DNA of 62,626 nt, the filler included, from Mycoplasmatota bacterium (GTDB lineage Bacteria; Bacillota_I; Bacilli_A; RF39; UBA660), in the NCBI GenBank assembly GCA_012727915.1. It is 7 parts of 7 records of this genome, joined end to end, with 100 filler letters (N's around TTAATTAATTAA, not from the genome) between each part and the next. Parts side by side here need not be neighbours in the genome. Positions count along the whole stretch, not along the records: positions 2,844 to 9,815 come from JAAYGD010000033.1; 6 more parts are not named here. One strand, 5' to 3'. A program made the position numbers and the translations under genes. The notes under the pieces were generated by a model, which was not told the origin of the DNA, ran no database searches, and saw nothing but the letters and a program-made list of their open reading frames with translations. Of this stretch, positions 2,846 to 35,812 are shown piece after piece; the stretch's first letter is position 1; each line of letters starts with the position of its first letter.

Positions 2846-5800
2846 AGCGATATAAAAAGTCAAAATCAATATTCATATAATATATGGATGGATAATATAA
2901 ATGAAATACCTACTGAAATAAATATGTTAACAGATAAAGATGGAGTGCCATGGATATTAAAAAATTATAAATCAATCGAAAAAAATAAATTAAATAATAC
3001 AAACATTTCATTTCAAAATTTAAAACCAGAACTTCAAACAAGAATAAGAGAATTAGAAATTAAGTTTTCATTTTTGAAAGATTTAAAACCCGAAGAAAAA
3101 AATGCTTTTTATGAAGAAGTAGCGTTAATGATGTGGTATGAATCACTATATATCGATTATGAAAAGAAGAGAAATGAAATATTAAAAGATTTAGAATATT
3201 TAAATAATGAAAAAAACAAAATAAAAGATAATATAGAATTTTCGATTGCAATATTAAATCCTTTTCTTTATACTAGGGAAGGACAATATGAAGAAGAAAA
3301 AAATATGCTTGAAACATTTACTGAAAAAGAATTTATTGATTACTATTTAACAAATAAAATAGATGATGATTTCAATGGTATGTCAGACCCATATGAATTG
3401 GATTTTAATATTCAACCTTACTTAATTGGAAAAGATTATTATGAATTAGAATCAAAAAAGAATGAAATTTTATCAAAACATTCAGAGTATGAATCTATTG
3501 AACAAATGGAAGAAATAGAAACAAAATATCAAATGTATAATGGAATAAAAGATGCCTTCGCTTATAATTATATCGAAAAAACAACAACTTATAAAGAATT
3601 TATGAATAATCTCGATTCTCATGGAGCGCTATCTTTAAATAATAAAGGATATGATTATAATTTATTAACACCAGAAGAAAAAGAAAGATATGATTTTTTA
3701 TATATTAATTATGGAACAAAAGAATCAGATGATTATTATAATATAGTTTTAGAACAACAATTAATAATGAGAAAAGGATATAAAGAAGGATATGATTTAC
3801 TTTCAAAACTTAAAGATAAAGTTTTTTTGTCTCAATGGATTATTACTGAATGGGAAGGAATTCAAGATGGTTTTGAACAAAGTATAGAAGGATTCAAAAA
3901 CATATTATTTCCAAGCGGAAAGCCAACATCTGACAGTTATAAAATGCAAGTAGTGGTTGCAGCATTAGAAAATGAAATTATTGATACATATTTTGATTCA
4001 GAAGAAGCAAAAGAAATTAAAGATAAATTATTAACTGGAGAATATACGCAAAACGATGTAATAAATGCTTTAAAGAAAAATGGAAAAAATTATAATGAAG
4101 TTTTAGATAGTTATTTTACTGCAAGTGGCTTAGATAATGTAAAAAATATGATTTTATCTAAATTGTATACAGGTTCTGTTTCAATTGGAAACATGGCACC
4201 ATCAATTGCATTATCTATAATTACTGGAAATCCAGTTATTGGTTCAATTGCCATGGGCTTATCATCAATGGGGAATGCTCAAAATGACGCTTTGATGAGT
4301 GGCGCAAGTAGATTATCAGCATTTATATATGGATCATTAATAGGGTCATCAGAAGCAGCTTTGGGATATTTTCTAGGAAAAACACCTTTTTTAAGTAAAA
4401 GTTCAGTAAATTTATTTAAAACAGCTGGTTTAGTAGCTACTTTAAAAGGAATGGTTTCAAATGCAAGTGGAGAATTAGTAGAAGAGGGAGCACAATTTAT
4501 ATTTGATAATTTGATATTTAGGCCATTATTATTAGGTCAACCAATAGATATAGAAGATTTGATAGGTGGTACAGCAGAGTCAGCTAGTATGGGCTTTTTT
4601 GTATCTTTACTTATGGGTTCTGGTCAAGTAGCTATAAGAATAGGAACGGATATAGTTAATTTATCTGCTGAACAAATAAAAACTGCATATGAAGCATATA
4701 GTATAAAAGATCCTGTTTTAAGAATGGAAAGACTAGAGGAAATATCGGGGCCACTTGGGATTGCCTTTAATTTGTTTGGTGAAAAAAATAATAATTATTC
4801 TCAACAAGTTGACTCTGAATTAATCTTTTCTGAAATTGGACTTCCAAAAGATAAAAAATCCAGGTTATCTATTTTACTTAAAAATACCTTTCAATCAGCT
4901 TTGTTGAAGCTTCAAAGAGTAATTAACAATTCTGAGGTGCATTCTGATTTGCATTCTGGTGAATCAATTGAAAATACTATTTATAAGAAATTAGATAATG
5001 TTTTAATACTAGAAGATGGACCAATAAAATCTAAAGAGATAAATTCTATAATAAATAATATATTAAGTATTGAAGACCCAAATATTAGAATTTCCATTCT
5101 AAATAACGTTTTTAATAACGATAAACAATATAGTATTATTGAATATAAATTAATCGCTTCAATATATGCTTTAGAGGATACAAATTTAAAAAACTCTATA
5201 TTAGATAGTTTTAATAATAATGTTATTGATATTAGTAATTATTATGGAGCTGGAGCGATATACATTTTATTAAATATTGGGAAACAATTTGGTGACATTA
5301 ATTTGGAAAATGTTGATTTTAGCAATCCTAATAATGATTTGTCAAAATTAGGAATTAATGCTCTTGAATTATTGTCTTGGGCTAATGAAAATAATAATAA
5401 ATTAATAATAAAATACGCAAATATAGGAGATCTAAAAGATTTATTGTTCTCGGGTTCAATTGACTTTGATGCATATGAAGAATATTATAAAGAAAGATTT
5501 AATATTATGCCAACAAACGAAATAGTATCCATTCTTTCATATAATGGAGATAATCCGAAAATCAAAAAAATGATTGCTGTGTTAATAAAATCGTGTTATC
5601 CAAATTTGCATAATTATTTTCCTGATTATACTATTTCGGGTCAAGCAACAACTAAGTCTAAAAGTCAAAATGTAAGTGTGTTTGAACTACTATCAATAGT
5701 TACAAATTTAGATTCATTCATAGCTTTTTTAAATGGTTCTTTAAAACTAAACAATCAAAATCAATACATATATTTAAATGCTTTAGAAAACTTATTAATG

Positions 5801-6475
5801 TTTATAAAGAATGATAATAATTCTATTGGATTGAATGAATATGAAATAAAAAGAATCGAATATTTGGTTAGAAATTATGATGAAGATATTAATGATATGG
5901 AGTATTTGGTACATCAAGCTCGTTTAGAATTAAAAAATAGAGGAGTAAATCAAATAGTAATAGAAGGATTAATAATTTCTAAACCAAAAAACTTTAATTT
6001 TAACTATCAAAATATTAGAGTAAAAGACTTAATAAAAATAATTAAAATTATGCCTCCAGAATTAGCTAAATCAATTAAAGGAATAAAATTATTCGATGTG
6101 GAAAACCCAGATGATTATTATTGGAAAATTGCATATAGTATTGATCATGTGAGCGCAGCATGTGGGGGAGATGGCTATATTTATATTTATTCTCCTTCAT
6201 CTTCAGAATGGAATTCCTCTTATCTTTCTGATATAATGTATCATGAAGCTGCTCATAATTTTGATAATCAAAATAAACGTAGAAAATATATGTATAGTGA
6301 AAGTAAAGAATGGATAGAAGCAATAGCTTTGGATAAAACTGCTCCTACAGAGTATGCAAAAACAAACAACGTAGAAGATTTTGCTGAATCAGTTGTTTTA
6401 TATTATAGTGATAGAGATAATTTTATTAAAAATTTTCCTCATAGAGCTGCTATATTAATGAAAATATTTAAATAA
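2846..6475 (+). CDS. Large polymorphic-toxin-like protein with C-terminal zinc metallopeptidase (HEXXH...E); 5'-truncated
   Basis: Frame is open from the contig edge; Gly/Ala-rich hydrophobic central region; C-terminal YHEAAHNFD...PTEYAKTNNVEDFAES...FPHRAAIL, resembling lethal-factor-like/Tox-MPTase zincins. Confidence 0.75.
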   Translation, partial: SDIKSQNQYSYNIWMDNINEIPTEINMLTDKDGVPWILKNYKSIEKNKLNNTNISFQNLKPELQTRIRELEIKFSFLKDLKPEEKNAFYEEVALMMWYESLYIDYEKKRNEILKDLEYLNNEKNKIKDNIEFSIAILNPFLYTREGQYEEEKNMLETFTEKEFIDYYLTNKIDDDFNGMSDPYELDFNIQPYLIGKDYYELESKKNEILSKHSEYESIEQMEEIETKYQMYNGIKDAFAYNYIEKTTTYKEFMNNLDSHGALSLNNKGYDYNLLTPEEKERYDFLYINYGTKESDDYYNIVLEQQLIMRKGYKEGYDLLSKLKDKVFLSQWIITEWEGIQDGFEQSIEGFKNILFPSGKPTSDSYKMQVVVAALENEIIDTYFDSEEAKEIKDKLLTGEYTQNDVINALKKNGKNYNEVLDSYFTASGLDNVKNMILSKLYTGSVSIGNMAPSIALSIITGNPVIGSIAMGLSSMGNAQNDALMSGASRLSAFIYGSLIGSSEAALGYFLGKTPFLSKSSVNLFKTAGLVATLKGMVSNASGELVEEGAQFIFDNLIFRPLLLGQPIDIEDLIGGTAESASMGFFVSLLMGSGQVAIRIGTDIVNLSAEQIKTAYEAYSIKDPVLRMERLEEISGPLGIAFNLFGEKNNNYSQQVDSELIFSEIGLPKDKKSRLSILLKNTFQSALLKLQRVINNSEVHSDLHSGESIENTIYKKLDNVLILEDGPIKSKEINSIINNILSIEDPNIRISILNNVFNNDKQYSIIEYKLIASIYALEDTNLKNSILDSFNNNVIDISNYYGAGAIYILLNIGKQFGDINLENVDFSNPNNDLSKLGINALELLSWANENNNKLIIKYANIGDLKDLLFSGSIDFDAYEEYYKERFNIMPTNEIVSILSYNGDNPKIKKMIAVLIKSCYPNLHNYFPDYTISGQATTKSKSQNVSVFELLSIVTNLDSFIAFLNGSLKLNNQNQYIYLNALENLLMFIKNDNNSIGLNEYEIKRIEYLVRNYDEDINDMEYLVHQARLELKNRGVNQIVIEGLIISKPKNFNFNYQNIRVKDLIKIIKIMPPELAKSIKGIKLFDVENPDDYYWKIAYSIDHVSAACGGDGYIYIYSPSSSEWNSSYLSDIMYHEAAHNFDNQNKRRKYMYSESKEWIEAIALDKTAPTEYAKTNNVEDFAESVVLYYSDRDNFIKNFPHRAAILMKIFK

Positions 6476-6928: not shown

Positions 6929-7110
6929 TACATAAGATTAGTAGTAATTGTTTAATTTTTAGAGAGATGCGTTTGGTGAAAGCATTAATTATTAATTATG
7001 AATGACACTTATGTATAAAATTTATTATATTAAATTAAGAGCATTTGAAATAGGGTGGCACCGCGGGGTAACTCGTCCCTATATGATATGCTTTTTATTT
7101 TATAGGAGGT
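6929..7110 (+). promoter_or_regulatory. T-box riboswitch, Asp (GAC) specifier
   Basis: Stem I base TACATAAG/CTTATGTA, AGAGA and GGTGAAA motifs, GAA-T-GAC-A specifier loop (GAC at 7004-7006), T-box AATAGGGTGGCACCGCG...CGTCCC. Confidence 0.88.
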
Positions 7111-12777: not shown

Positions 12778-13065
12778 ATGGGAGAAGAAATGGAAGAAAA
12801 GTCATTGTTTGATTGTGAAGTTGGAGATATATTTACAATAAACAGAATAGAAGAAAATGATTCAACAAAGAATTATTTGTATTCATTAGGATTCTTAAAA
12901 AATGTAGATGTATTAGTATTACAAAAGTATGGAGATAGTGTAGTAATAAAAATATTTGAATCCAGATTGGGAATAGAATCAAATATTTCATCTAACATAT
13001 ATGGACATATAAAAGAAAATAATAAATCTAATCCGCATTCTAAATCTAAAAGAAAAGATCAATAA
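12778..13065 (+). CDS. FeoA-domain protein (stand-alone)
   Basis: SLFDCEVGD..I..I...YLYSLGF...V.VLQK...VVIKIFESRLGI pattern; no feoB adjacent. Confidence 0.7.
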   Translation: MGEEMEEKSLFDCEVGDIFTINRIEENDSTKNYLYSLGFLKNVDVLVLQKYGDSVVIKIFESRLGIESNISSNIYGHIKENNKSNPHSKSKRKDQ

Positions 13066-13122
13066 ATAAAAGTATATACAAATATTTTTTTTTGATATAA
13101 TAAATTTGTTTTTGGGGGTATT

Positions 13123-13653
13123 ATGAAAATTAATTATGATTTAATGGATAAAGTTATTACTGCTAATAACAAAATTAACCATAAGAAAAATCTTTTATTT
13201 GAATTAAAAAATGCTCATAAAGCATTATTAATTACATATTTGATAACCAGAATATTTGGAGATTCTAACAAGATTGTGTTAAAAGAAGGTATGTTTATTA
13301 CTTTAGGAATAGTATCTTTAAGATTATTGCTTAATACACTCAATCAATATAAAAAATTAAATATGAATGAGAATAGTGAAGATGCAAAATATGATCTATA
13401 TTTTTTAGTAGATAATATTAATAAAACATTTAATGAAAGTATTGATTCCCAATCAATAGAAAAAGCAAAAGTTGAAAAAGTTAGATATAAACCTATAATA
13501 ATAAATGGCTTGCCTGCTTTAAAACAAAATAAATATATATCTGTGCCATCTTATTCTGAATTAAATAACTTTGGAACCACTTCAATTCTTCAAGAACATG
13601 TCTTGTCTTCTTATGAATATGAATTAACAATAAATAAAAAAAAGAATCACTAA
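13123..13653 (+). CDS. Hypothetical protein with hydrophobic segments
   Basis: 176-aa ORF with RBS GGGGG and TGATATAAT promoter upstream. Confidence 0.6.
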   Translation: MKINYDLMDKVITANNKINHKKNLLFELKNAHKALLITYLITRIFGDSNKIVLKEGMFITLGIVSLRLLLNTLNQYKKLNMNENSEDAKYDLYFLVDNINKTFNESIDSQSIEKAKVEKVRYKPIIINGLPALKQNKYISVPSYSELNNFGTTSILQEHVLSSYEYELTINKKKNH

Positions 13654-14201
13654 TCATGTAATTCTTTTTTTAATTGTTGCGGTATATCTCGTTTTATTTC
13701 CATTGGATTTATATATGATGTTTCTATATATCCACAATTAGTGCATTCTCTCGTCCACTTAACATTTAAAAAGAATTTATCTTCTTCAAAATCTTTTTTA
13801 TCAATCCATTCTGTTTTAATCCAACCACTATTATTAAATTGATGCCCTTTTTCTCCACATTTAGTAATGTTTTCAAATTCTTCCATTTCTTCAATAGAAT
13901 CTAACAAATCTGGAAATATAGCGTGCATAACTTTTTCTTGACTAGAAGAAGAAAGATTTTTTAATTTATTTAACATATCAACAATATAATCTTTTTTTAT
14001 TTTATCCTCTAAACTATAAGCATAATCAGTTATTATTTCTCTTAATTCCTTTGATGCTACTATATCATAATTATCTGTTTTGTCTTGAGAAATCTCATTA
14101 AAATATAAATTATCTAATAGTGCTTTTGTAAATTCCAGTTGATCATTAGGTTCCATATCAATCAATTCATTAATTAAATATTGTTTTTTTTCTAAGCTCA
14201 T
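13650..14201 (-). CDS. Hypothetical protein with possible C-terminal Zn-ribbon
   Basis: RBS AGGAGG; CGEKGH...RECTNCG. Confidence 0.65.
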   Translation of the reverse strand: MSLEKKQYLINELIDMEPNDQLEFTKALLDNLYFNEISQDKTDNYDIVASKELREIITDYAYSLEDKIKKDYIVDMLNKLKNLSSSSQEKVMHAIFPDLLDSIEEMEEFENITKCGEKGHQFNNSGWIKTEWIDKKDFEEDKFFLNVKWTRECTNCGYIETSYINPMEIKRDIPQQLKKELHD

Positions 14202-14313: not shown

Positions 14314-15129
14314 TTGAATAATAAAAAGTATGATGTATTGGATGAATTAGAAAAAGTAGTTAAACCTGTTTTTAATACTAATATAGATAGATGTTGGTAT
14401 TATGTAAATACAACTGGGTATTTAACTGATAAAAATGGAGAATTTCTTAGTTTTTATAATACTCAATCTAATTATGAAAGCGCGGAAAAAAAAGCATATG
14501 AAGACGGAGTAAAAGAAGCAAACGAGTATAATTCGGCTTTAAATATTAAGTTAGTAAATATTGCTAAAGAACATTTAAAATCAAATTTAAAAAAAGCTCA
14601 AGCACTATACTTAATTTTAGAAAACAAAAATATAAATATTGATTTAGGATTATTCTTGTTTGAAACACAATATAATATATTTTCAAATGACGCTAATAAT
14701 AATATTTCTTCATGGAATACAGTAAAAAATAAAATTATGCTTGCTATTGATTTCTTAATTTCAATTCAGAAATTAAGATATGATGGTGATGATTTAGAAC
14801 CAACAAAGTTTTTATTTGAGGCATTATCTGAAGATAAAAGCGGAAGTGAGTATAAAACACATATATTAGTAACTTATATAAAGGAATTAAAGAAAAAAGT
14901 GGATGATAAAACATATGAAAGCCATGTAATAAATTTATTAAGAGAAGGTTATAATCAAAAGTTGCTTGATGATATAAATAAAGAATCCGACCTAATGAAA
15001 ATAGCGGATACTCAAATATTGAGTGATGCGGAGAAGAATCCAATTATATCATCTGTTATGGATAAATATGGTCAAAAAAAATTAAGTCTTTACACTAAAT
15101 ATGTTAGTAATAGTTTTTTTAAATATTGA
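14314..15129 (+). CDS. Hypothetical protein
   Basis: 271-aa ORF followed by terminator AAGCGAT-aata-ATCGCTT plus T-run. Confidence 0.6.
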   Translation: MNNKKYDVLDELEKVVKPVFNTNIDRCWYYVNTTGYLTDKNGEFLSFYNTQSNYESAEKKAYEDGVKEANEYNSALNIKLVNIAKEHLKSNLKKAQALYLILENKNINIDLGLFLFETQYNIFSNDANNNISSWNTVKNKIMLAIDFLISIQKLRYDGDDLEPTKFLFEALSEDKSGSEYKTHILVTYIKELKKKVDDKTYESHVINLLREGYNQKLLDDINKESDLMKIADTQILSDAEKNPIISSVMDKYGQKKLSLYTKYVSNSFFKY

Positions 15130-16640: not shown

Positions 16641-16970
16641 ATGGCTATGAATAACATGATGATGGCTGATGGTGGCGGCAGTGGTGGTTATGGGACTAAA
16701 GTTGATTGGATTAAGTTGAAAGAGGTTGGTACTGACACAGTAAATTATGCACAAAATGATATTTCTTCAAAAATTGAAGAACTAAAAAATTTAAAAAGTC
16801 AAACTGTATGGGAAGGCGAAGACAAAGATAAAGTAATGCAACAATATGACAATTTAATGAATGATTTACAAAAGTTGGCACAAATGATTGCAAAATATGG
16901 AGCATTTACTATAGGAGTAGCTGACACATATCAAAATGCATCAACAAAAATAAAGAATATGATGAGTTAG
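16641..16970 (+). CDS. WXG100-family (EsxA-like) protein
   Basis: 109 aa, helical-hairpin pattern with central WEG (TVWEGEDKDK) and C-terminal VADTYQNAS; RBS AGGAGG. Confidence 0.75.
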   Translation: MAMNNMMMADGGGSGGYGTKVDWIKLKEVGTDTVNYAQNDISSKIEELKNLKSQTVWEGEDKDKVMQQYDNLMNDLQKLAQMIAKYGAFTIGVADTYQNASTKIKNMMS

Positions 16971-16982
16971 AGGGAGGATAAA

Positions 16983-17342
16983 ATGAACGAGAATAATAGT
17001 AGTATATCTGGTACTGGAGTATTAATTAACAGTGCAAGTGTTGACAAATTAGGCAAAGATATAAGAACAAAAACTGAAGAATTGCTATCTATGATTAAAA
17101 CTGTTGAAGAAAAACTTAATAGTAGTGTTAATTACTATAATAGTCCTTCTGCAACAGAATTTAGAAATAAAATTCAAAATTTTACAGAAAAGGCAGAAGC
17201 CGAATCAAAGAAAACCTTGGAAAATGTTGCAAATTTCTTTGAAAGTGTAGCAAGACAATATAAAGTAATTGATGAAGAAATAATTTCTTTAGAATCAAAA
17301 TATTTAACTAATGATTCTGGACTTTTTGAAACTGTTGAATAA
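16983..17342 (+). CDS. WXG100-like protein (degenerate motif)
   Basis: 119 aa; central YYNSPSATEFRNK at the WXG position; C-terminal VARQYKVIDEE; RBS GGAGG. Confidence 0.65.
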   Translation: MNENNSSISGTGVLINSASVDKLGKDIRTKTEELLSMIKTVEEKLNSSVNYYNSPSATEFRNKIQNFTEKAEAESKKTLENVANFFESVARQYKVIDEEIISLESKYLTNDSGLFETVE

Positions 17343-17715: not shown

Positions 17716-19524
17716 ATGACAGAAATAAATTTAAAAGATTATGAAGAAGCAGGGATTGATTATGCTTCTGTTTCTGATAACCTTTCTAAGGTTATCAATA
17801 ATATTAATGGTGTAATAGACAAGTTACATTATAAAGTGAAGAACATCGTTACTGACGATGTTTCTTCAATTATGACTAAATTGAATATTGATAAATCTAA
17901 TATTGATTTAACTAGTGAAAATATAGCTTTAATTTATATAATATATCTTGGTGCTATTAATTCTATTGAAATAGATTTTGGTAATTTAGAAGACATTTTT
18001 TCTAATATTGATTTATTAAAACTTGGAGAAAAAATGGATCCTGAAACATATATACAGTTTTTAAGTATGCTTGGATTTAGTTCTTCTAGAATAAAAGAAT
18101 TAATTGAGGAAAATAATCGTATATTAAATGAATTTAATAATAATTCAACAAGTGTTTTTATAGGTTCTGACAGTGCATTGCAACAAATATATAATGTAAA
18201 TTTTAATGCTTTAACTATTAACTTGGATTATGATGAAAATTCAAATTATAGTGTAAATGGTAATTATGAGGGATTAAAAAGATTTGTTAATTTAACTCAA
18301 GACCGAATTGATATTATAAAAACATCGATGGATGAAGAGAACCCTGATTATAATTTATTTATAGAACAACAAAGAGGACTAGGTTATTTTTATGATACTT
18401 TTGATGGTAAAGATCTTACTGATAAAGAAAAATTCGAACTTTTATTATCTAATTTAGAAAATGGTGTAAGCTCTATAGAAAATGAAATTCAAAAAATGAG
18501 AAGTTTAGAATTACAAACTGTAAAACTACAAAACGCATTATATGGAGTAAACAGGTTTGAAGGGTTAGCTTCATTTGAAATTGAAAAAAATTCTGAGGGT
18601 TTTATTGAATTTTGTGAAACTAATGCTTCAAATGGTAATGAAGAACAGTTGTCTGTATTTTTAATTAATAAAGTTAAATCTTTTGCCCCCGATGAAGCAA
18701 ATCAAAATTATTTAATAGAACAAATAAATAAAGGTAACTATAGTGTTGTTGCATCATTGTTAGGTGGTTATGGATTTGGTGCTCAAAAATATATGTATTG
18801 GCCAAAAGATGATCAGGATAAAATGCAATTTGACTCTTTTACTACATTTTTAAATGAGGGACAAAGTTTATATTCTGTTGATAGCAAATATTTAACCGAA
18901 GAACAAAAGAATCTTTATATGTATTTTGTGTATAATGGTGAATTCGACAAAGCAAATAATTATTTTATTGCTTTAAAAGATGCGATAAACTCAAAAAAAG
19001 GTTATGAAGAAAAAGAAGATTTTAAACGAAGAATGGAAGAAAGCGGAGCTCCGCCTTTAACTGCTTTTGGAGAAGGTTTTGATGATGGAATAGAAGGTTT
19101 TTTTGAAGGAATAGTAAGTATTTTGGGATCGTCAAATATTAAGTCTCAAAACGATTATGCAAAATTATATAAAATGCAATATTTAATGGAACTTGCTGAA
19201 AAAGAAGGCGGATTAGAGAATTTTCTTTCTAATCATGGTTATAAATTTGGAGTTACAGCAGGAACTATTACTCCAACTATATTTCTTGCAGCTGCAACAG
19301 CAGGAACTAGTTGGGCAACGGCTGCTCCAACTCTTGCTTTTGGAGGGCAAATTTTTGGTACACAATTACATTATGATCATGTTAAGAATGGAGAACTAGA
19401 TTTTGGATCATATTTTTATGCAGGTATTTATGCTTTAACTGAAGTAGTAACTGAAAGAGTATTAGGTGGTTTACCGGGTTTATCAAATTCACAATCAGGA
19501 ATAATAACTAGAATGTTGAACGAA
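17716..19524 (+). CDS. Large putative T7SS effector / polymorphic toxin, 3'-truncated
   Basis: RBS GGAG then MTEINLK; about 90-aa helical N-terminus; distal part aligns by eye with the centre of 2846..6475. Confidence 0.65.
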
Positions 19525-26879: not shown

Positions 26880-29177
26880 ATGAAAAAAGGATTTACTTTA
26901 ATTGAACTACTTAGTGTTTTAGTTATCTTAGGAATTATACTTGTTATAGCAGTTCCAAGAGTATTGGATGTTATAGAAATCTCAAAAAAACAAGCTTTTG
27001 AATTGGATGTAAAAAATGTAATAAAAACTTTTGATTTGAAAAGTATGATATCACCAGACCCAAGTAATTTTATTGTTACTAATAACAATATGAGTGATGT
27101 ATTACACATGTCAGATGAGAATTATGAATTTTTAGAATTATCTAGTGATATAGATAATTCTTATGCTATAGTAGCAGGAAAAAATGCATGGGAAGGTTTA
27201 ATTATATGCGGCACCATGGAAAATTTGGCTTTTTTTGATGATATTGAAGATTGTAATAGATTTGTTGCAGAACCTGTATACACTTCAGAAGAGATTACTG
27301 CAAAAATTGCTTTAGGATATATACCAATTTCTACAGCCGACGAACTAAATAACATTAGAAATAATACTTCAAATACTTTTGGATTAAATACAGAATGGGA
27401 AAATACATATGTTGGTGGTTTAGATAAAAATTATATTCAAGTTAAAAGTATTAACCTTGGTGTTGAACCATATAATACTGGAGAAGGATGGGTTCCTATT
27501 GGAACTCATGAATATTATTGTGATGTAGTTGAACCAGTAGTAGGTGCATTCGAAGGTATTTACGATGGTGGTGGATATAAAATTAGTAATCTTTATATTA
27601 ATCGAAATATAACTATTTATCCTGTTGGATTATTTAGTACAAGTTCAGGAAGTTTTTATAATATAATTATTGATCAATCAAGTGTTACTAGTGGTTACAA
27701 AAATATTATGCTGAATGAATGGTCTTATGTTCGAGAAAATGAAATGCCTGTTGGAACATTAGTTGGGCTTGTAACAGGAAATAATATAAATATTGATAAT
27801 GTGAAAATACAAGGAAATACAAAAGCAATAACTGGTGTCAAAAGTATTTGGCCAACAAAAATCGGAAGTTTAATTGGTTATGTTCAAAACGTAAATATAA
27901 TTAATATTACTAATACTAAAGCAATAGGTAACGTAATAGGGTACTCAAGCTTTGTTGGTGGATTAATAGGACGTGTTTCAAAATACAATGAAATTCTTAT
28001 AGAAAATTCATCTTTTGACGGCAAAGTAATTGGAGGTTATAAAATAGCGGGTTTAATTGGTAAAGCAGCATATGAGAAAACAAGTAGTGACCCAAGTCCT
28101 TGGACAAATTCTGTTAAACTGACTATAAGAAACACTATTGTAAACGCAGATATTACTGCAAATGAAGGTATGGACATTGGTGGACTTGTTGGACAAACAA
28201 AGTTTTTAAATGATTTATTAATTGAAAACGTTACTTTCAATGGAAACATTAATTACTCGTTTCATAATACTGGTGGTTTAGTTGGTAATGTTGGTAGATC
28301 AAATTCACTTATCATTAAAGATTCGAATGTTAACGGAAATATTGTAGATAATTATAGTGGTAGAGCTGGTGGTGTAATTGGAACAATAAAAGAAGTTTCT
28401 TCAGTTTTATTAGATAATGTTCACTATATTGGGAATATTAATACTGATAGGCCATCATATCATCCTCCTTTACGTATTGGAGGACTAATAGGAAGTGTTG
28501 GAATTTTTTGGAATACAGAAGACCCTATGTTTTATACTTTAGTAAATATAAATAATAGTTCTGCTAAAGGAGATTTAATTGGAGCAACATCTAAAATGGG
28601 TGGTTTAGTAGGAGTTATTGATAGAAATGATCAAAAAATTGTTAATTCTCAACTTAATATAAATAATTCTTTTTATGAAGGAAATATTTATACAAAAACT
28701 AATTCTGATTTAAATCAAGGTAGATTTTTAATGCTAGGTGGTTTAGTAGGTGCTGGAGTAAATATAAATATAAATAATTCATATGCTAAAAGCAATATAT
28801 ATGGGGTGTTTAATTCAACAAGATGTAAAATAAATCTAATCACTGAACACGCCGTTGGTGGTTTAGTTGGAAAAATTATAACAAATGCAACTATTACTAA
28901 TTCATATTATGTCGGAGATATTGAAGTTAAATATGTAGATGTTGTACAAAATTTGAACACTTATGATTACATCAATGCAGTAGTGGGAGATAAAGATAAT
29001 GCTACTTTAACTGGAGTTTATTATGATTCAACAGTTACTAGTGTTCAAGATACATTAGCAATTCCAAAGACTACTATAAATATGAAAAGTGGTGTACCTA
29101 GTTTAGATATATATACAAACTGGGATACAAATATATGGAATTTTGATGATACAAATGCTTATCCTACTTTTAAATAA
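26880..29177 (+). CDS. Large pilin-like protein with GLUG-type (GGLVG) repeats
   Basis: KKG|FTLIELL class III signal; many xGGLVG/GGLIG repeats; ISTADELNNIRN, GEGWVPIG, YDGGGYKISNLYINR; W..NIWNF...YP C-terminus. Confidence 0.82.
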   Translation: MKKGFTLIELLSVLVILGIILVIAVPRVLDVIEISKKQAFELDVKNVIKTFDLKSMISPDPSNFIVTNNNMSDVLHMSDENYEFLELSSDIDNSYAIVAGKNAWEGLIICGTMENLAFFDDIEDCNRFVAEPVYTSEEITAKIALGYIPISTADELNNIRNNTSNTFGLNTEWENTYVGGLDKNYIQVKSINLGVEPYNTGEGWVPIGTHEYYCDVVEPVVGAFEGIYDGGGYKISNLYINRNITIYPVGLFSTSSGSFYNIIIDQSSVTSGYKNIMLNEWSYVRENEMPVGTLVGLVTGNNINIDNVKIQGNTKAITGVKSIWPTKIGSLIGYVQNVNIINITNTKAIGNVIGYSSFVGGLIGRVSKYNEILIENSSFDGKVIGGYKIAGLIGKAAYEKTSSDPSPWTNSVKLTIRNTIVNADITANEGMDIGGLVGQTKFLNDLLIENVTFNGNINYSFHNTGGLVGNVGRSNSLIIKDSNVNGNIVDNYSGRAGGVIGTIKEVSSVLLDNVHYIGNINTDRPSYHPPLRIGGLIGSVGIFWNTEDPMFYTLVNINNSSAKGDLIGATSKMGGLVGVIDRNDQKIVNSQLNINNSFYEGNIYTKTNSDLNQGRFLMLGGLVGAGVNININNSYAKSNIYGVFNSTRCKINLITEHAVGGLVGKIITNATITNSYYVGDIEVKYVDVVQNLNTYDYINAVVGDKDNATLTGVYYDSTVTSVQDTLAIPKTTINMKSGVPSLDIYTNWDTNIWNFDDTNAYPTFK

Positions 29178-29378: not shown

Positions 29379-29478
29379 NNNNNNNNNNNNNNNNNNNNNN
29401 NNNNNNNNNNNNNNNNNNNNNNTTAATTAATTAANNNNNNNNNNNNNNNNNNNNNNNNNNNNNNNNNNNNNNNNNNNN
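29379..29478. other. Artificial contig linker
   Basis: N-TTAATTAATTAA-N. Confidence 0.98.
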
Positions 29479-32400
29479 CTTCTAAATACCATCCATTTAT
29501 TGCATAATCAAAAGTATTATCTTTAGTGTTTACTTTTATAAATGATAGTTTTTCTTTCCAAAATTCTACTACTTTTTGATATTCTAAATCAATATTCTCT
29601 AATTTTGAATACTTAGATATTAATTTACTATTATCTATACTAGAACCAATTATAAATGATAATTTCTTTGTTTCACCTTTTTTGATATTTAATCCAATTG
29701 AAATTGATTTAAAATCATTATAAATATCAAAATCTACTATCTTTTCTGTTGATGTAACAAATACTTCTCTATCTTTAAAAACTTGACTAGAATATCTATT
29801 ATATAACATCAAAGAATTTAATGTATTATTTGCTTCTGCTACTATATAAGGATAATTATATTCTTTAGATGTACCAAGTACTGGTGATAACATTAAACTT
29901 ATAGGTAAAGACTTATTATCTTTAAATTTATTAGTTACTTCTAATTCATATATTTTTACATTATCCATACCCACAAAAACTTTAGTATTTATTTCATAAT
30001 TATCATTCTTAGTAATAAACTTAGTATATCCAAATCCATGAATACATTCATCAATGCTAATGCTCTTATTATCTATAATAATATCTTCACTTCTAGGATC
30101 ACTAACACTATCATTGCTCCAAGATGTTATTTTATATTCTCTACTATTACCACTATAAGTAAAACCACCCATATTATTTGTAATAACTGCTCCGAATTCT
30201 CCATTTGTTAATACGTTTGACCAAGGTGCAGGAGTATTTATTGTATTAATTTTATATTCTGTTCCTTCGTTTATTAATTCTCCTATTACTTCAACCTTCT
30301 TATTATTTGAAACCATCCTTGGATACTTAAGAGGATCATATTTAACTATCTCTTTTTCAATTTTATTGAATATATTATCTGATGCTTTTAATAATGAAGT
30401 TTCAAAATATAATTTAGATACCAATTTAAACAATTTTTCATCTTCATAATTAAATTTATCTATTACAAATACTGTTCCAAATTCTTCTTCAAAATTATTT
30501 TGCGAATTAATTTTATAAATAATATCATATACATATTTATTTATAGTTTCTTTCTTAATAGTATTTTGTTCTTTATTTAAAATTACTATATCAATATATA
30601 TAGATCTCTTTTTATAATATTCATAAGCTTTTAATATTTGTTTTGCAACCCCAATTCCTTCAAAGTCATCTACCATTACAGTAATAATAGGCCAATTATC
30701 AGAAATTCCAAACTTCCATATTTCGTTTTTAGACATATTATTTTCCAACAACAATTTTTCATTTTCAAAATTATATGGCATATAATTATATAACTTCTTC
30801 AACATATGATTATATAAGAATATTTGATTAGAATTTAAATTTGAATGTCCATCTAATATAGCTCCAAATAATTCTGATTCCCTATAAGTTGCTTTCATTG
30901 TTTCTGTATTATCATATATATCTAAAATATCTAATACTTGTTCTTTAGATTTCCCAAAACAAGTAACTAAATATATTGTTTTTTGTTTATTAGCTTTTAA
31001 AGTGATATTTTTTCTTATACTCATTATAGGATCTAATAGAGCATTTTTATCGTTAGATAAACGTTTACTATCCACTATTACTTCTGCATTATTTAAACTT
31101 CTATTTCTTCCTATAAAATTTGATCTAGATGTTTCATAATCAGTTTTAGAATTATCATCTAATATTAGCATTCTATGCGCTACATAATATTCATTTAAAT
31201 CTTTAGTTCTAGAATGTCTTTTAAATATTAATGATGAGGTTTCTTCATCAAAGGTAGATGAAATAGATACCCCATTAAACGCTCTATGCGCAATATCTTC
31301 TTCAGCTCTAGCCATTATAAGTTCTCCATAAGAAGTTAGCTCTAAATCAACATCTTCAATGTTGTAGTTATTTATAGTTACTTTTCTTATTTCTACACTA
31401 TCTTCCTTCGATACTATTATTTCAGTTTTAGTTATTATTAAATTATCTTCTCTAATATATTTAATTATTCCAGGTTCAAAAGTTACATTATACTTATCGG
31501 GAGCTTTCATAAATGGTTCATAAGTATTGGTCCAAACTACATTACTAGATAAATTTTTAATATATAAGAATAAACCATATGGTTCTTCTGGTACATTTCT
31601 ATATCTATTAATTTGAAGATTTTTATATTTTGTAAAACCTATACCTCTATCATTTATTAGAGTAGTATATAGTCCATTAGATATTATTCCGTAATCCGGT
31701 ATATCTTTAATTCCTTCTTGAAATCTAATTAATACATCTTTACTATCTTTAGTATATTCATATTTTCTATACTTTTCTATTTTTAAATCAATATATGGTT
31801 TTAATTGAGTCTTTTCTTTAAGCAAAATCTCCATTGATTTAATTCTTCTATCTTCATTAAAATATTTTTGAATTATATTTTCTTTCAATAAATTTGTAAT
31901 ACTACATATAATCATACCTTGATGATGAGCATAATAAGTTTTTACAACTTCTTCTTCTTCAGCATCATAAGCTTCATAAAAACCATACTCACCTTCCATA
32001 TCATATTTTTTTAATTTATTTATATTGTTATAAACAGATAATGGGAATTTTGGAGCAGCCAAAATTGAACCATATGGAGAAATTACAACCCTTGGTTTTT
32101 TAGTATCTGCGAATTTTAAATAAGGCACACCAAATGCTTTATATTTGTAATTTTGCGAATCGTCCAAATCATTATAAGCAGATTCAGTAATTCCCCAAGG
32201 TAACTTAGAATTTACTTCTTTTATGAAATCTTTTTGAACATAATGGCCAAATGAATATGTTTCATCTAATAAAGTATATGGAAATGATTCCATAAATATT
32301 AATGGCATGAAATATTCAAAAGAAGTTCCATTCCAAGAAATAAGTCCTTTTCTAAATTTATGCTTTGTTAAACTTTTATCTAATAAGAACCAATGTCTAT

Positions 32401-35400
32401 AAGGAACTTGTTTCATACTTATTGCAATATAACTAACAAGTCTACTTTCAGATAAAAATTTATCATAATTATAATTAGATAATACATCATTACCTACATC
32501 AAATCCTATTGAAAACACATCAGAATCTTTATCATATAAATATTCAAAATTAGTATCACTAATTATTTTTTCAATTCTATTTGCTAAAACATCATATTCT
32601 TTTTTTGATTTTAAGAACTCTTTAACTACAAATAAACATCCTACAAAATTTCCACTATCTACTGTAGATACAAAGTATGGAGTCATCTTTTTCGAATCTA
32701 AAATATTATACCAATTATATAAGTGCCCATGCCATTTCTCTAATCCTTCTACACTATTTATTATATTAGAAATTTTGTCTATTGCTTCTTCTAATTTAAT
32801 AAATTTTAATTCATAAGCACATATAATCGATAATAACGAAAAACCTATGTTAGTAGACGAGGTTCTATAATCAAGTTTATTTCTTCTATTTAATTGATAA
32901 TTATCAGGTATTAAATAATTATATTTTTTTACTAAATAATGTTCAAAATATTTCCATGTCTTATACGCAATTTTTTCATATTCATCTAATATGTTTTCTG
33001 ATAAATGATCTTTTTTTCTTTTGAAATCTTTACTCAATAAATACATTAAAATTGGTGCGAATAACCATGCAAATGATAAAGGAAATACTAAATAATAATA
33101 CTCTGGTTTAAATAGCAAAGATAAAAATACAAACGAAACCGTAATAATAGTTGAATAATTAAAATTACTTATGTATGTTCTTATATCACCTTTAGATCTT
33201 TTTTCAACTTCATCTGCAGTAACCCAATCAAGTCTATGTTTTTTACTTACAAATAATCTATTGATTGTTCTTACTATAGCATCAGTATATAAATGAGTTT
33301 CAAATGGTAAAACAGATATTGCAACCGATGATTTAATTAAAATTGATAGAAAACCTCTAATTAAATTTAAATAATATTTTAAAAATATTGTATATTTTCT
33401 TTTTCTAAATAATGAAATTATATAAAATATTATAGGAATAGAAATTGTTAATAAAGCAAAACAAAGATATGCTGTTGGGCTTCCTTTACCAATTGTAAAA
33501 CCGTAAAACAAAAACAACATGAAAAACAAATGATTTATACTTCGTCTTAAATTATCAAATATTTTCCATCTTGATATTAAGTTTAATGGGTTATCAACGA
33601 GTTCATTGTTTTTATTTTTTGTTTTGTTTTTTAGCCAAAATAATATTTGCCAATCTCCTCTAGTCCATCTGTGATGTCTTGCAGTATCATTTAAATATTT
33701 TGAAGGAAAACCATCAAATACTTCTATATTAGATGCAAAACCCGACCTTAAATAGCTTCCTTCCAATAAATCATGACTTAATATTAAATTGTCTGGAAAA
33801 GTATTTTTTAATAACTTTTGAAATATTTCCAAATCATAAATACCTTTTCCAACAAAACTACCCTCATCAAACACATCTTGATATAAATCAAATGTAGTTC
33901 TAGAATAAACATCTAAACCACCCAAACCACCATATAATTGAGAATATTCAGATTTATCTGTAACTTCTATTTCTATGTTTACTTTAGGTTGTACCATAGC
34001 GTGCCCTAAAATAACCCTTGTTCCTTCTTTATTTAAAATTGGTTTATTCATAGGATGAATCATAACACCCACTAATTTTAAAGCTGTAGAAAGCACTAAT
34101 TTAGTATCAGCATCTAAAGTAATTATATATTTGATTTTTTTATTAAATTTTTTAAAAGTATTTACCTTATATCTTGTATTTATTTCCTCTTCACTAAGAT
34201 GACCTAATAACAAATCATTAAATTCAATTAAAGCTCCTCTTTTTCTTTCTCTACCCAAATAACATTCTTGGTCATCACTATAAAATCTATTTCTATAAGC
34301 AAAATAAAATATTTCATCTCCATACTTTTCATTTAATTCTTTTACAATCCTTATACCAGTTTCTACAACTTCATCATCATAAGGAGTACCTTCAGTTTTA
34401 GATGCAGCAGCATCTCCTAATAAAGTAAAATATATATTATCACTCTTGTTAGATAAATAAAACAATTCCAAGTTTTCAAACATGGCTTCTACTCTTTTTT
34501 TATCTTTAACAATAGTAGGAATAACAACCATTGTACTATGTTCTTTTTTAATATTATCTTCAACTTTTAATGAAAATAAAGCTTTGGCATCTATAAATCT
34601 AAGTAATATTTGAGTAATAATATCTACAGATAATCCAATCATCGGAATTAAAATTAAAATAAATGCCCATATATCAGTAAATAAATAAATAATACGAGCC
34701 ATAAAAATCGCTAATAAAACTACTGATGCTATATATAAATAAGCTTTAAAATTATTACATTTGTCATTGAACAAGTAAAAACCAACATGTTTATTTTCCT
34801 TATTTGCGGAATTTATAAGTTTTATAACATAATCATATTCATTATGGTATTTACTTTTCTTCTCTATTTCTTTTCTATATCTATACTTGCTATCATCAGT
34901 CATTTTACTATAAAATCCTGCTTTTTCTTCTAAAAGAAGCTTTTCTGAAAAACTAATATTAGAATAAAAATCATGACCTTCAACATCTATAGGATTCTTT
35001 GATGATTTTTTTATCGAAGAAAATATATTCATAATTAATATATTTTCATTGATAAGAGCTTCTTGTTGTTCAGTAATTATTTTATTAAGCTCAACACCTT
35101 TTTCTTTAAATATTTCTTCCATTTTTATTTGAACTTTTTCAGCAGAAACTCCAAGTTCTCCAAGTTTATAATTAAGTTCTTCTATATAATATGGTTTATT
35201 TAATATTGTTTCATCAATCTTAATTACATCATTAACATTAAAATTCTCATCAGCTTTTCTCTTGTTAATTTCTTCAAATAAAGTTTCTATTTCTCTTTTT
35301 TGAGTTAATTTTAAATCTAATACATTACATAGATCTCCCAATCTGTCTATAAGAACTAATCCTACTAGATTATAAATATATTCAATTTCTTTATAAGAGA

Positions 35401-35713
35401 AATAATGATTAGTTTCTTCTTGATATTTATTTAAAACATTAAATAAATGTTTATAATTTAATTGAAAGTTTTTATCTCTTAAAACAGAATAAACTAAATC
35501 ATATGTTTTTTCTTTATGTTTAATACTTTTATAATTGTCTGTACTCAAATAATATAGTAATCCTTTTTTTTGTGAATCGATAATATAATAATTATCTATA
35601 AGCCATTCTGTAGTACTACCAACACTTCTATTATCTTTGGTTAATTTTATTGCTTTCTTATAATAATTAAAAATAATTTTATTTTTATTAATAAATCTTT
35701 TTTTCAAATGCAT
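29479..35713 (-). CDS. Cyclic beta-1,2-glucan synthase (Cgs/NdvB-like: GT84 + glucoamylase-like + GH94 domains), 3'-truncated
   Basis: EWLIDNYY, ERKRG, ITLDADT, LSHDLLEG, HRWTRGDWQ, RWKIFDNLRRS, SWNGTSFEYFMP, WGITESAY, AHHQGM, APWSNVLTNGEFG; ATG at 35713 with RBS AGGAGG. Confidence 0.87.
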
Positions 35714-35812
35714 TAAAAAAATCCTCCTATTATTCAAGAAACATTATATCATAATTATCTAAATTAGTCATTATTCAAAAAGAATGGTATAATACTTATA
35801 GTAGGTGATAAT

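Follow-up and report, generated by a model that had tools for sequence, protein, structure and literature searches.

The closest described counterparts of the loci treated here are the LXG toxins of type VII secretion systems (T7SSs), such as TelA-TelE, YxiD and TspA, in which a constant N-terminal region is followed by a variable C-terminal toxin and a small downstream gene. How type VIIb toxins travel to and into their target cells is an open question (PMC10765036; sources are cited by PMC identifier, and statements drawn from them refer to the portions covered here), and the sole translocation region proposed is disordered and chaperone-bound (PMC12478183). The window analyzed here is a stretch of 62,626 nt from the Mycoplasmatota bacterium assembly GCA_012727915.1, consisting of seven contigs joined by N runs, and it encodes two large proteins, effector A on contig C14 and effector B on contig C15, that have a central domain in common; a third paralog, C, lies at G000:C12:100-3798 of the same genome (G000). 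Judged from its sequences, this real, unnamed domain is the defining feature of a family of polymorphic effectors that are linked to T7SSs and are not LXG proteins. Homology of the domain to phage polyvalent proteins is well supported, and a role in cell entry is plausible.

The effectors have the LXG layout of constant region, variable tip and small downstream gene, and their loci recall LXG systems, with their Lap partners and DUF4176 chaperones, in having upstream small helical genes, DUF4176 neighbors and linkage to EssC. The position of the domain is also comparable to that of the TelA/TelB middle domain, which has been proposed as a translocation element (PMC12478183). Unlike LXG toxins, however, the effectors have no Pfam LXG domain, are larger (750-3,900 aa) and occur in a source genome where the EssB, EsaA and YukD families are unmatched; unlike the disordered TelA/TelB region, their middle domain is conserved, about 330 aa long, helical and confidently modeled. 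The large polyvalent proteins of phages (Iyer et al. 2017, PMC5512222) resemble the effectors in carrying the Gly/Ala half of the domain with exchangeable conflict enzymes behind it, but the module is near their N-terminus, the full helical half is missing, and the genes lie among virion genes without a downstream gene that tracks the tip. Polymorphic tips and immunity genes are also typical of MuF toxins, which are phage-linked, and of T7SS-linked Rhs toxins (PMC11217815), whereas the effectors scanned gave no MuF or Rhs repeat match and are not in prophages. No description of the domain, the effectors or the phage link was found in the literature, subscription papers and the supplements of Iyer 2017 (which could name the domain) being outside the scope of this search; the covered parts of PMC5512222 give no account of the Gly/Ala module or of a T7SS link.

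The shared central domain

The domain common to A and B, which the original prediction had proposed from an alignment by eye, is confirmed. All four motif pairs were found, and multiple alignments place them in register (Table 1); A and B, carrying the same domain, are paralogs and not halves of one gene. Taken by itself, the match between the two proteins is only marginally significant: BLASTP gave E 2e-5 over 112 columns that include the first two motif pairs only, 2 of 500 full and 7 of 300 local shuffles scored as high, and phmmer found neither B with A as the query nor A with B. The homology is secured because paralog C matches both proteins and the family profile scores B. The A/C and B/C scores of 545 and 366 were each reached by none of 200 and none of 300 shuffles, and a profile of 152 family members, B not among them (although they were originally gathered with an alignment containing B), gave B 149.8 bits (E 4.5e-45). 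The length of about 250 aa first ascribed to the shared part was too short, as the domain extends over about 320-370 aa, with an insertion of about 50 residues in A relative to B.

AlphaFold2 predicts an all-helical domain (predicted local distance difference test, pLDDT, 77-79; predicted template modeling score, pTM, 0.72-0.73). Its Gly/Ala/Ser-rich half spans profile positions ~170-340 and includes three low-charge Gly/Ala/Ser stretches that are conserved in both effectors and phage proteins. The first of these, about 40 residues long, has a mean hydropathy of 1.0-1.2 and 1-3% charged residues in the effectors, and a mean hydropathy of 0.7 in the phages. The domain has no Pfam or NCBIfam match, and three profiles searched against PDB sequences returned nothing under E 0.2; a Tse5 row at E 0.92 in the PDB sequence search was dismissed.

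Linkage to type VII secretion

A and B are very probably T7SS-linked polymorphic effectors, with genomic linkage pointing to their export. The source genome has an EssC above the NCBIfam cut-off, endowed with an N-terminal FHA domain and adjoined by small genes, and EssC occurs in 183 of the 401 genomes of the bacterial family. It was present in 30/30 of the effector genomes inspected, in 3/10 of those with the phage type only and in 8/8 of those left unclassed; these genomes are kin, so the counts overstate independence. The essC gene lies inside 14 of the 39 effector loci examined, WXG100 and DUF4176 genes precede the effector in many loci, and a conserved 82-aa gene stands beside essC in 10 loci. 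EssC and WXG100-type genes, the genetic linkage by which a T7SS substrate is recognized, were both found. The N-terminal helices are predicted with pLDDT 50-70, and the N-terminal 300 aa gave no usable match in the ESM Atlas. On these sequences, the effectors would act like LXG toxins without belonging to the LXG family.

Two further observations concern type VII secretion in this genome. The T7SS locus L015 (G000:C75:2616-10585), together with L019 (C11), contains the FHA-EssC, the 82-aa conserved gene, two helical genes of ~90-100 aa and a protein of ~1,380 aa that spans C75/C11 and ends in a hydrophobic helix, with no EssB, EsaA or YukD family match in the locus. It is possibly an undescribed minimal subtype. 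None of the T7SS subtypes c-j, as given in the covered portions of PMC11217815, fits the gene set seen here. In addition, a second substrate class with at least 4 copies in the genome (L015:1-2504, L017:7386-7691, L018:2679-3887) combines a WXG100-like N-terminus, a Thr/Pro linker and hydrolase-like or CHAP-like C-terminal domains.

Polymorphic tips and downstream genes

An 11-sequence profile of the domain matched 2,370 representatives at E 0.001 (437 at 1e-30) and 48 of the 401 genomes of the bacterial family, and the family proteins have intact frames of 750-3,900 codons. The tips are swapped by recombination directly 3' of the domain, as paralog pairs that diverge just past it show: two pairs are 99.9% identical over aa 1-741 (G002) and 97.4% identical over aa 1-734 (G005), and unrelated beyond. 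Variable tips and small downstream genes had been anticipated, and tabulation of the C-terminal domains and neighbors bore this out. The 146 tails drawn from the best 150 representatives and two earlier matches fall into 52 tip clusters, with 13 zincin and 46 papain-like tails by profile. Tips named by Pfam are EndoU, TNT NADase, ADP-ribosyltransferase (ADPrib_exo_Tox), metallophosphoesterase, HD, transglutaminase-like and GNAT; EndoU, TNT, ADPrib_exo_Tox, metallophosphoesterase, transglutaminase-like and GNAT exceed the Pfam cut-off, and many of the named tips act on cytoplasmic targets.

The tip of A, and this tip only, resembles Pro-Pro endopeptidase/Zmp1 and the ATLF-like zincins in its HExxH and downstream acidic motif, but the match to the Pro-Pro endopeptidase/Zmp1 profile is short (60 columns, E 4e-4) and that to Pfam ATLF (E 0.0017) is below cut-off. 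C is 1233 aa long, with a papain-like tip by motif, and is followed by a 233-aa gene. The label papain-like is our assumption from conserved Cys, His and Trp columns, and the tip has no PDB or Pfam support.

The next gene encodes at most 300 aa and starts within 45 nt in 25 of the 37 effectors whose downstream gene is in view (one cross-contig row was dropped). One family of downstream genes follows 8/8 papain-like tips and another 4/4 terminal zincin tips, never crossed; the latter includes the 137-aa gene 3' of A, for which no curated family scored above cut-off. A third family follows 3/4 transglutaminase-bearing tails, and one effector is followed by an ADP-ribosylglycohydrolase gene. The downstream genes co-vary with the tip, and most likely they give immunity against it. 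Several hallmarks of polymorphic toxins were found: a constant N-terminal part, exchangeable C-terminal domains, recognized toxin families and a downstream gene that tracks the tip.

The same genes bear on another explanation, in which the module itself would be pore-forming or membrane-damaging, as in glycine-zipper T7SS toxins, and the tips would be added payloads. The Gly/Ala-rich helices do resemble those of membrane-active toxins, and TelE is described as having a glycine zipper by which membranes are destabilized (PMC10765036). However, the downstream genes vary with the tip and not with the constant module, and no constant membrane immunity gene was seen at the loci, which makes this explanation improbable.

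Three unusual forms were also recorded. P0050 is a family member with an N-terminal dockerin (Pfam above cut-off) and, by eye, a RelA/SpoT-like tip. The effector at L083:8124-11228 has a degenerate zincin domain and a C-terminus resembling the zincin-associated downstream family, a possible toxin-immunity fusion. Finally, L044:686-2377 encodes a shortened protein of 476 aa that has the N-terminus of the family and a zincin tip but lacks the shared domain, and whose gene is followed by one of 80 aa; this protein offers a natural test case for the need of the shared module.

Homology to phage polyvalent proteins

The Gly/Ala half is, as far as sequence comparison can tell, very probably homologous to a segment of phage polyvalent proteins. 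A second class of matches covers this half only, near the N-terminus of proteins of 1,600-2,400 aa. At 10 of 11 such phage-type loci, genes of ~190, ~590 and ~330 aa come before the polyvalent gene and tail-like genes after it; a major head protein was present in 2/2 loci tested, and LPD38, LPD3, LPD23, MuF_C or PBECR3 scored above cut-off in 3/8 phage-type proteins. A position among virion genes and LPD-type domains, as in a phage homologue, were both found. In layout, the loci are like the operon that holds the ejection genes in short-tailed phages (PMC8954989), and the gene position suggests that these proteins may be packaged and ejected. Loci L047, L098, L103-L110, L113, L117 and L131 form a group of podovirus-like prophages from monoderm hosts, each with what looks like an ejection module of two genes.

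When effector and phage alignments were compared by hhalign, they matched over 138 columns (99.6%, E 7e-24), and reversed and shuffled controls of the profile-profile comparison were blank. Seventeen distinct phage-type proteins, five of them classed without a view of their gene context, scored 26-76 bits, against maxima of 6.3 for 529 reversed open reading frames (ORFs) and 8.3 for local shuffles. In the opposite direction, a phage-only profile searched against the genome picked out two proteins only, A (E 1e-13) and C (E 1e-6). The nearest ESM Atlas clusters were viral (0.95-0.96), and the top Foldseek match in BFVD was a Podoviridae MuF-C protein, with modest E-values; both searches are independent of the phage set gathered here.

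A weaker match is that to the N-terminal domain of the N4-like virion RNA polymerases (vRNAPs; N4 gp50, DEV gp71). The N-terminal regions of eight Schitoviridae vRNAPs, gathered with N4 as query and aligned independently, matched the effector-only profile over 88 columns (86.5%, E 4.6e-6; N4 ~347-446; reversed control 0.2%) and scored 43.6 with the mixed profile, where the shuffle maximum was 18.6; among 579 ORFs, the best match of the vRNAP profile was an effector domain, at 27.8 bits. The N4-like match is a partial one, with low scores (9-19 bits) for individual sequences; the alignment does not take in the long hydrophobic hairpin, and vRNAP hosts are diderm. As single sequences, N4 and DEV stayed below 8 bits with the first profiles and reached 9% as a pair; only the eight-sequence alignment was clear. 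According to PMC13434306, the N4 domain can enter nanodiscs and serves as the enzyme's anchor to the inner membrane.

Other searches of phage sequences gave mixed results. A single phage-side query found one viral contig with the same layout, and, as a further likeness to the N4-like vRNAPs, 6/11 members matched PHROG 2206 (best E 3e-4); the PHROG scan with the phage-side alignment gave nothing under E 0.006, and scanning viral contigs for motifs of a 3-sequence alignment gave 597 candidates, none confirmed. A tape-measure row at E 0.2 in tblastn was rejected, being below zero or off the list with profiles. One could suspect that the phage similarity reflects convergent Gly/Ala-rich helix composition and not common descent: the phage set was initially gathered with the effector profile, three tblastn searches of isolated phages found no match, and the Foldseek values are modest. 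This suspicion is difficult to reconcile with ordered motifs aligning over 138 columns, with controls at or below 8.3 bits, with the failure of two tape measures, T7 gp15/gp16 and P22 gp20/gp16 to match (at most 3.7 bits), and with the independent vRNAP alignment, which matches and has an effector domain as its best hit; convergence is very improbable.

The likeness to polyvalent, phage-injected proteins suggested in the original prediction thus stood for the Gly/Ala half, in profile searches run both ways and in language-model and fold searches, and fell for the helical half. As for the phage-derived membrane-crossing module that it hinted at, the homology held, while "membrane-crossing" and "phage-derived" are still inferences, with no match to a solved fold and an unrooted tree. 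In genomes of the phylum outside the bacterial family, 3 of 384 sampled gave a match, all in frames of 2,000-3,000 aa, and therefore the phage form looks more widespread than the effector form. In the tree, three of the effector rows are placed with those of phages; a single effector clade was not rejected by the approximately unbiased test (p 0.284; quick unrooted tree computed without B and three duplicates), and without a root any direction of transfer is conjectural.

This grouping, along with the homology to prophage proteins, could also mean that the genes derive from prophages, as remnants or as domesticated phage proteins, and have no link to secretion. That possibility is largely refuted: the neighbors of A, B and C are housekeeping, WXG100 and small genes with no flanking phage genes, all 30 carriers inspected have EssC, and the long frames are intact.

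Proposed mechanism

The following account is favored, with a probability of roughly 0.6. The variable helical N-terminal stalk would pair with adjacent WXG100/Lap-like proteins and be exported via EssC, while the helical bundle probably shields three nearly uncharged, predicted helical segments rich in Gly/Ala/Ser. At the target cell, these segments would insert in the cytoplasmic membrane and the tip would reach the cytoplasm, as the homologous phage segment is thought to do for the cargo domains of ejection proteins. The tip is exchanged 3' of the domain and travels with the matching downstream gene, which most likely gives immunity. A folded-away membrane-insertion module is favored because the domain lies between the stalk and the swap point and precedes enzymes that have their targets in the cytoplasm. 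That the Gly/Ala half is a cell-entry device, as its phage homology suggests, has slightly better than even odds.

Several observations, besides the kinship of the genomes, weigh against this account. With regard to export, LXG (PF04740) had no match in 38/38 effector N-termini at E 0.05 or in the source genome, a WXG100 match was seen in 1/38 N-termini (E 0.012), the N-terminal profile reached only 21% against the WXG100 profile, and no export signal was identified among the N-termini; EssB, EsaA and YukD were unmatched in a genome 93.8% complete in 76 contigs. The phage-only profile missed B in the genome search, and B had 20 bits in later scoring. No Pfam family was found in 30 of the 41 representatives scanned, an Ig-like domain terminates one representative and another has an N-terminal dockerin, and 12/37 effectors have no close small downstream gene. 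Among solved structures, searched for a relative such as a known pore-forming or translocation fold (colicin, diphtheria T, T7 gp16), Foldseek found no match by fold at E 0.001, and the best VIA Z was 7.0, for a hairpin of ~65 residues. The Gly/Ala segments are moderately hydrophobic (mean 0.7-1.2), the predicted membrane helices of N4 (224-278) lie outside the aligned ~347-446 (PMC13434306), and the peptidase tips might be active extracellularly or in processing the protein that carries them.

These last points are shared by the main rival, which also takes the proteins as T7SS effectors, with the domain as a structural spacer or a scaffold for oligomerization or partner binding on the producer side, in export or surface display, and the phage homologue as an assembly element. 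The domain models as a confident, soluble-looking helical bundle, its hydropathy is modest, the predicted membrane helices of N4 are not part of the stretch that aligns (PMC13434306), and the peptidase-like tips of 59/146 tails would not need to enter a cell. On the other hand, the first conserved stretch has 1-3% charge over 40 residues, the module also precedes NADase, EndoU and ADP-ribosyltransferase tips, and it sits directly before the swap point. The scaffold is the less likely of the two, and unlikely in itself; membrane insertion of the Gly/Ala segments is the preferred reading.

Genomic context of the loci

The source genome has 873 kb in 76 contigs with ~24% GC. Matching DNA occurs in metagenomes from digesters, a landfill, bioreactors, manure and wastewater (20 rows, 10 studies, no RNA dataset among the rows), and long pieces matching the genome were found in 3 of the 4 metagenome runs compared with contig C12. 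A near-identical full-length form of A (P0001; 97% identity) is 1271 aa long, and in this independent assembly the N-terminus of A is that of C. Contigs C30 and C14 both end with the 127 bp that open C12, and C14 itself begins with a stretch 96% identical to C12:290-410. A is most likely preceded by its own 229-aa WXG100 gene, whose product is above the Pfam cut-off, and a 138-aa gene on contig C30, if the contig overlaps are joined in this way. In the original prediction the two loci together outlined a full system; with this probable join, they would not be needed to complete each other. The four runs compared with C12 did not reveal the contig upstream of it, leaving the C30-A join unconfirmed by reads; a loose end at the tip boundary (position 2285) is backed by one contig only. 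The tip of B was searched for in the assembly and not found.

The simplest order is relA, dtd, 229-aa WXG100, 138-aa gene, A, 137-aa gene, hisS, aspS, C, 233-aa gene, uvrC, the housekeeping names (relA, dtd, hisS, aspS, uvrC) being presumed from the sequences. A presumed T-box-like leader, judged by its motif, lies at 6990-7100 of the window, 5' of hisS-aspS. The hisS-aspS/uvrC site holds effectors with differing tips in four congeners, and the hisS-aspS site is an effector hotspot across the genus. By its position, the 102-aa coiled-coil protein 5' of B is a candidate Lap-like targeting partner.

Table 1. Positions in the window of the effectors, their parts and the adjacent genes
Feature	Position	Strand	Remarks
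Effector A	2846..6475	+	5' end cut by contig start
Shared domain in A	3611..4714	+	All-helical model, pLDDT 77.3, pTM 0.72
Motifs in A	3662-3787, 3854-3946, 4163-4204, 4319-4396	+	Multiple alignment
Helical half in A	3650..3990	+	Profile positions ~10-126; full match in effector-type proteins only
Gly/Ala/Ser-rich, low-charge half in A	4163..4660	+	Also in large polyvalent phage proteins (ejection position); proposed to insert in membranes
Zincin metallopeptidase-like tip of A	5873..6472	+	HExxH 6242-6256; conserved acidic motif 6374-6388
Candidate immunity protein, 137 aa	6486..6899	+	Internal repeat; family follows terminal zincin tips, 4/4
Paralog C, first codons	9788..9815	+	Continues on contig C12; end of C14 = start of C12 over 127 bp
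WXG100-like protein, 109 aa, 5' of B	16641..16970	+	Pfam WXG100 E 0.023, NCBIfam ESAT6_2 E 6e-5; both below cut-offs
WXG100-like protein, 119 aa, 5' of B	16983..17342	+	Pfam WXG100 E 0.007, NCBIfam ESAT6_2 E 4e-9; both below cut-offs
Coiled-coil protein, 102 aa	17353..17661	+	Generic coiled-coil matches only
Effector B	17716..19524	+	3' end cut by contig end
Shared domain in B	18850..19524	+	Helical half complete; roughly the first half of the Gly/Ala half present
Motifs in B	18889-19011, 19072-19164, 19237-19263, 19408-19485	+	Multiple alignment

Elsewhere in the window, unannotated ORFs lie among housekeeping genes 5' of the B locus (12778-14201 and 14314-15129), those scanned having no family above cut-off. 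Positions 29423-35737 (minus strand) encode a 2,100-aa GH94/glycoamylase protein, cyclic beta-glucan synthase-like, in this 873-kb genome, and prepilin-like N-methylation proteins are encoded at 2303-2743 and 26880-29177, a GLUG motif being present in one of them.

Implications for type VII toxin delivery

Bacteria with genomes of 0.6-1.6 Mb keep EssC (183/401 sampled) and a diverse set of weapons, in which many tips are unclassified and candidate immunity families occur. It is conceivable, though the odds are somewhat against it, that a small-genome walled lineage took, possibly repeatedly, a phage ejection segment, of a family shared with the N4-like vRNAP anchor, as the entry device of non-LXG type VII toxins served by a stripped-down machine. 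What the family offers is a folded, conserved domain between stalk and swap point, with thousands of representatives, one half of which has homologues in phage proteins presumed to pass through, or be anchored in, the membrane of the host, and which can be cloned and tried by itself. If the account is true, the domain would be a defined, folded candidate for the entry of type VII toxins into target cells, and phage protein injection and bacterial toxin delivery would be tied to one ancestral module.

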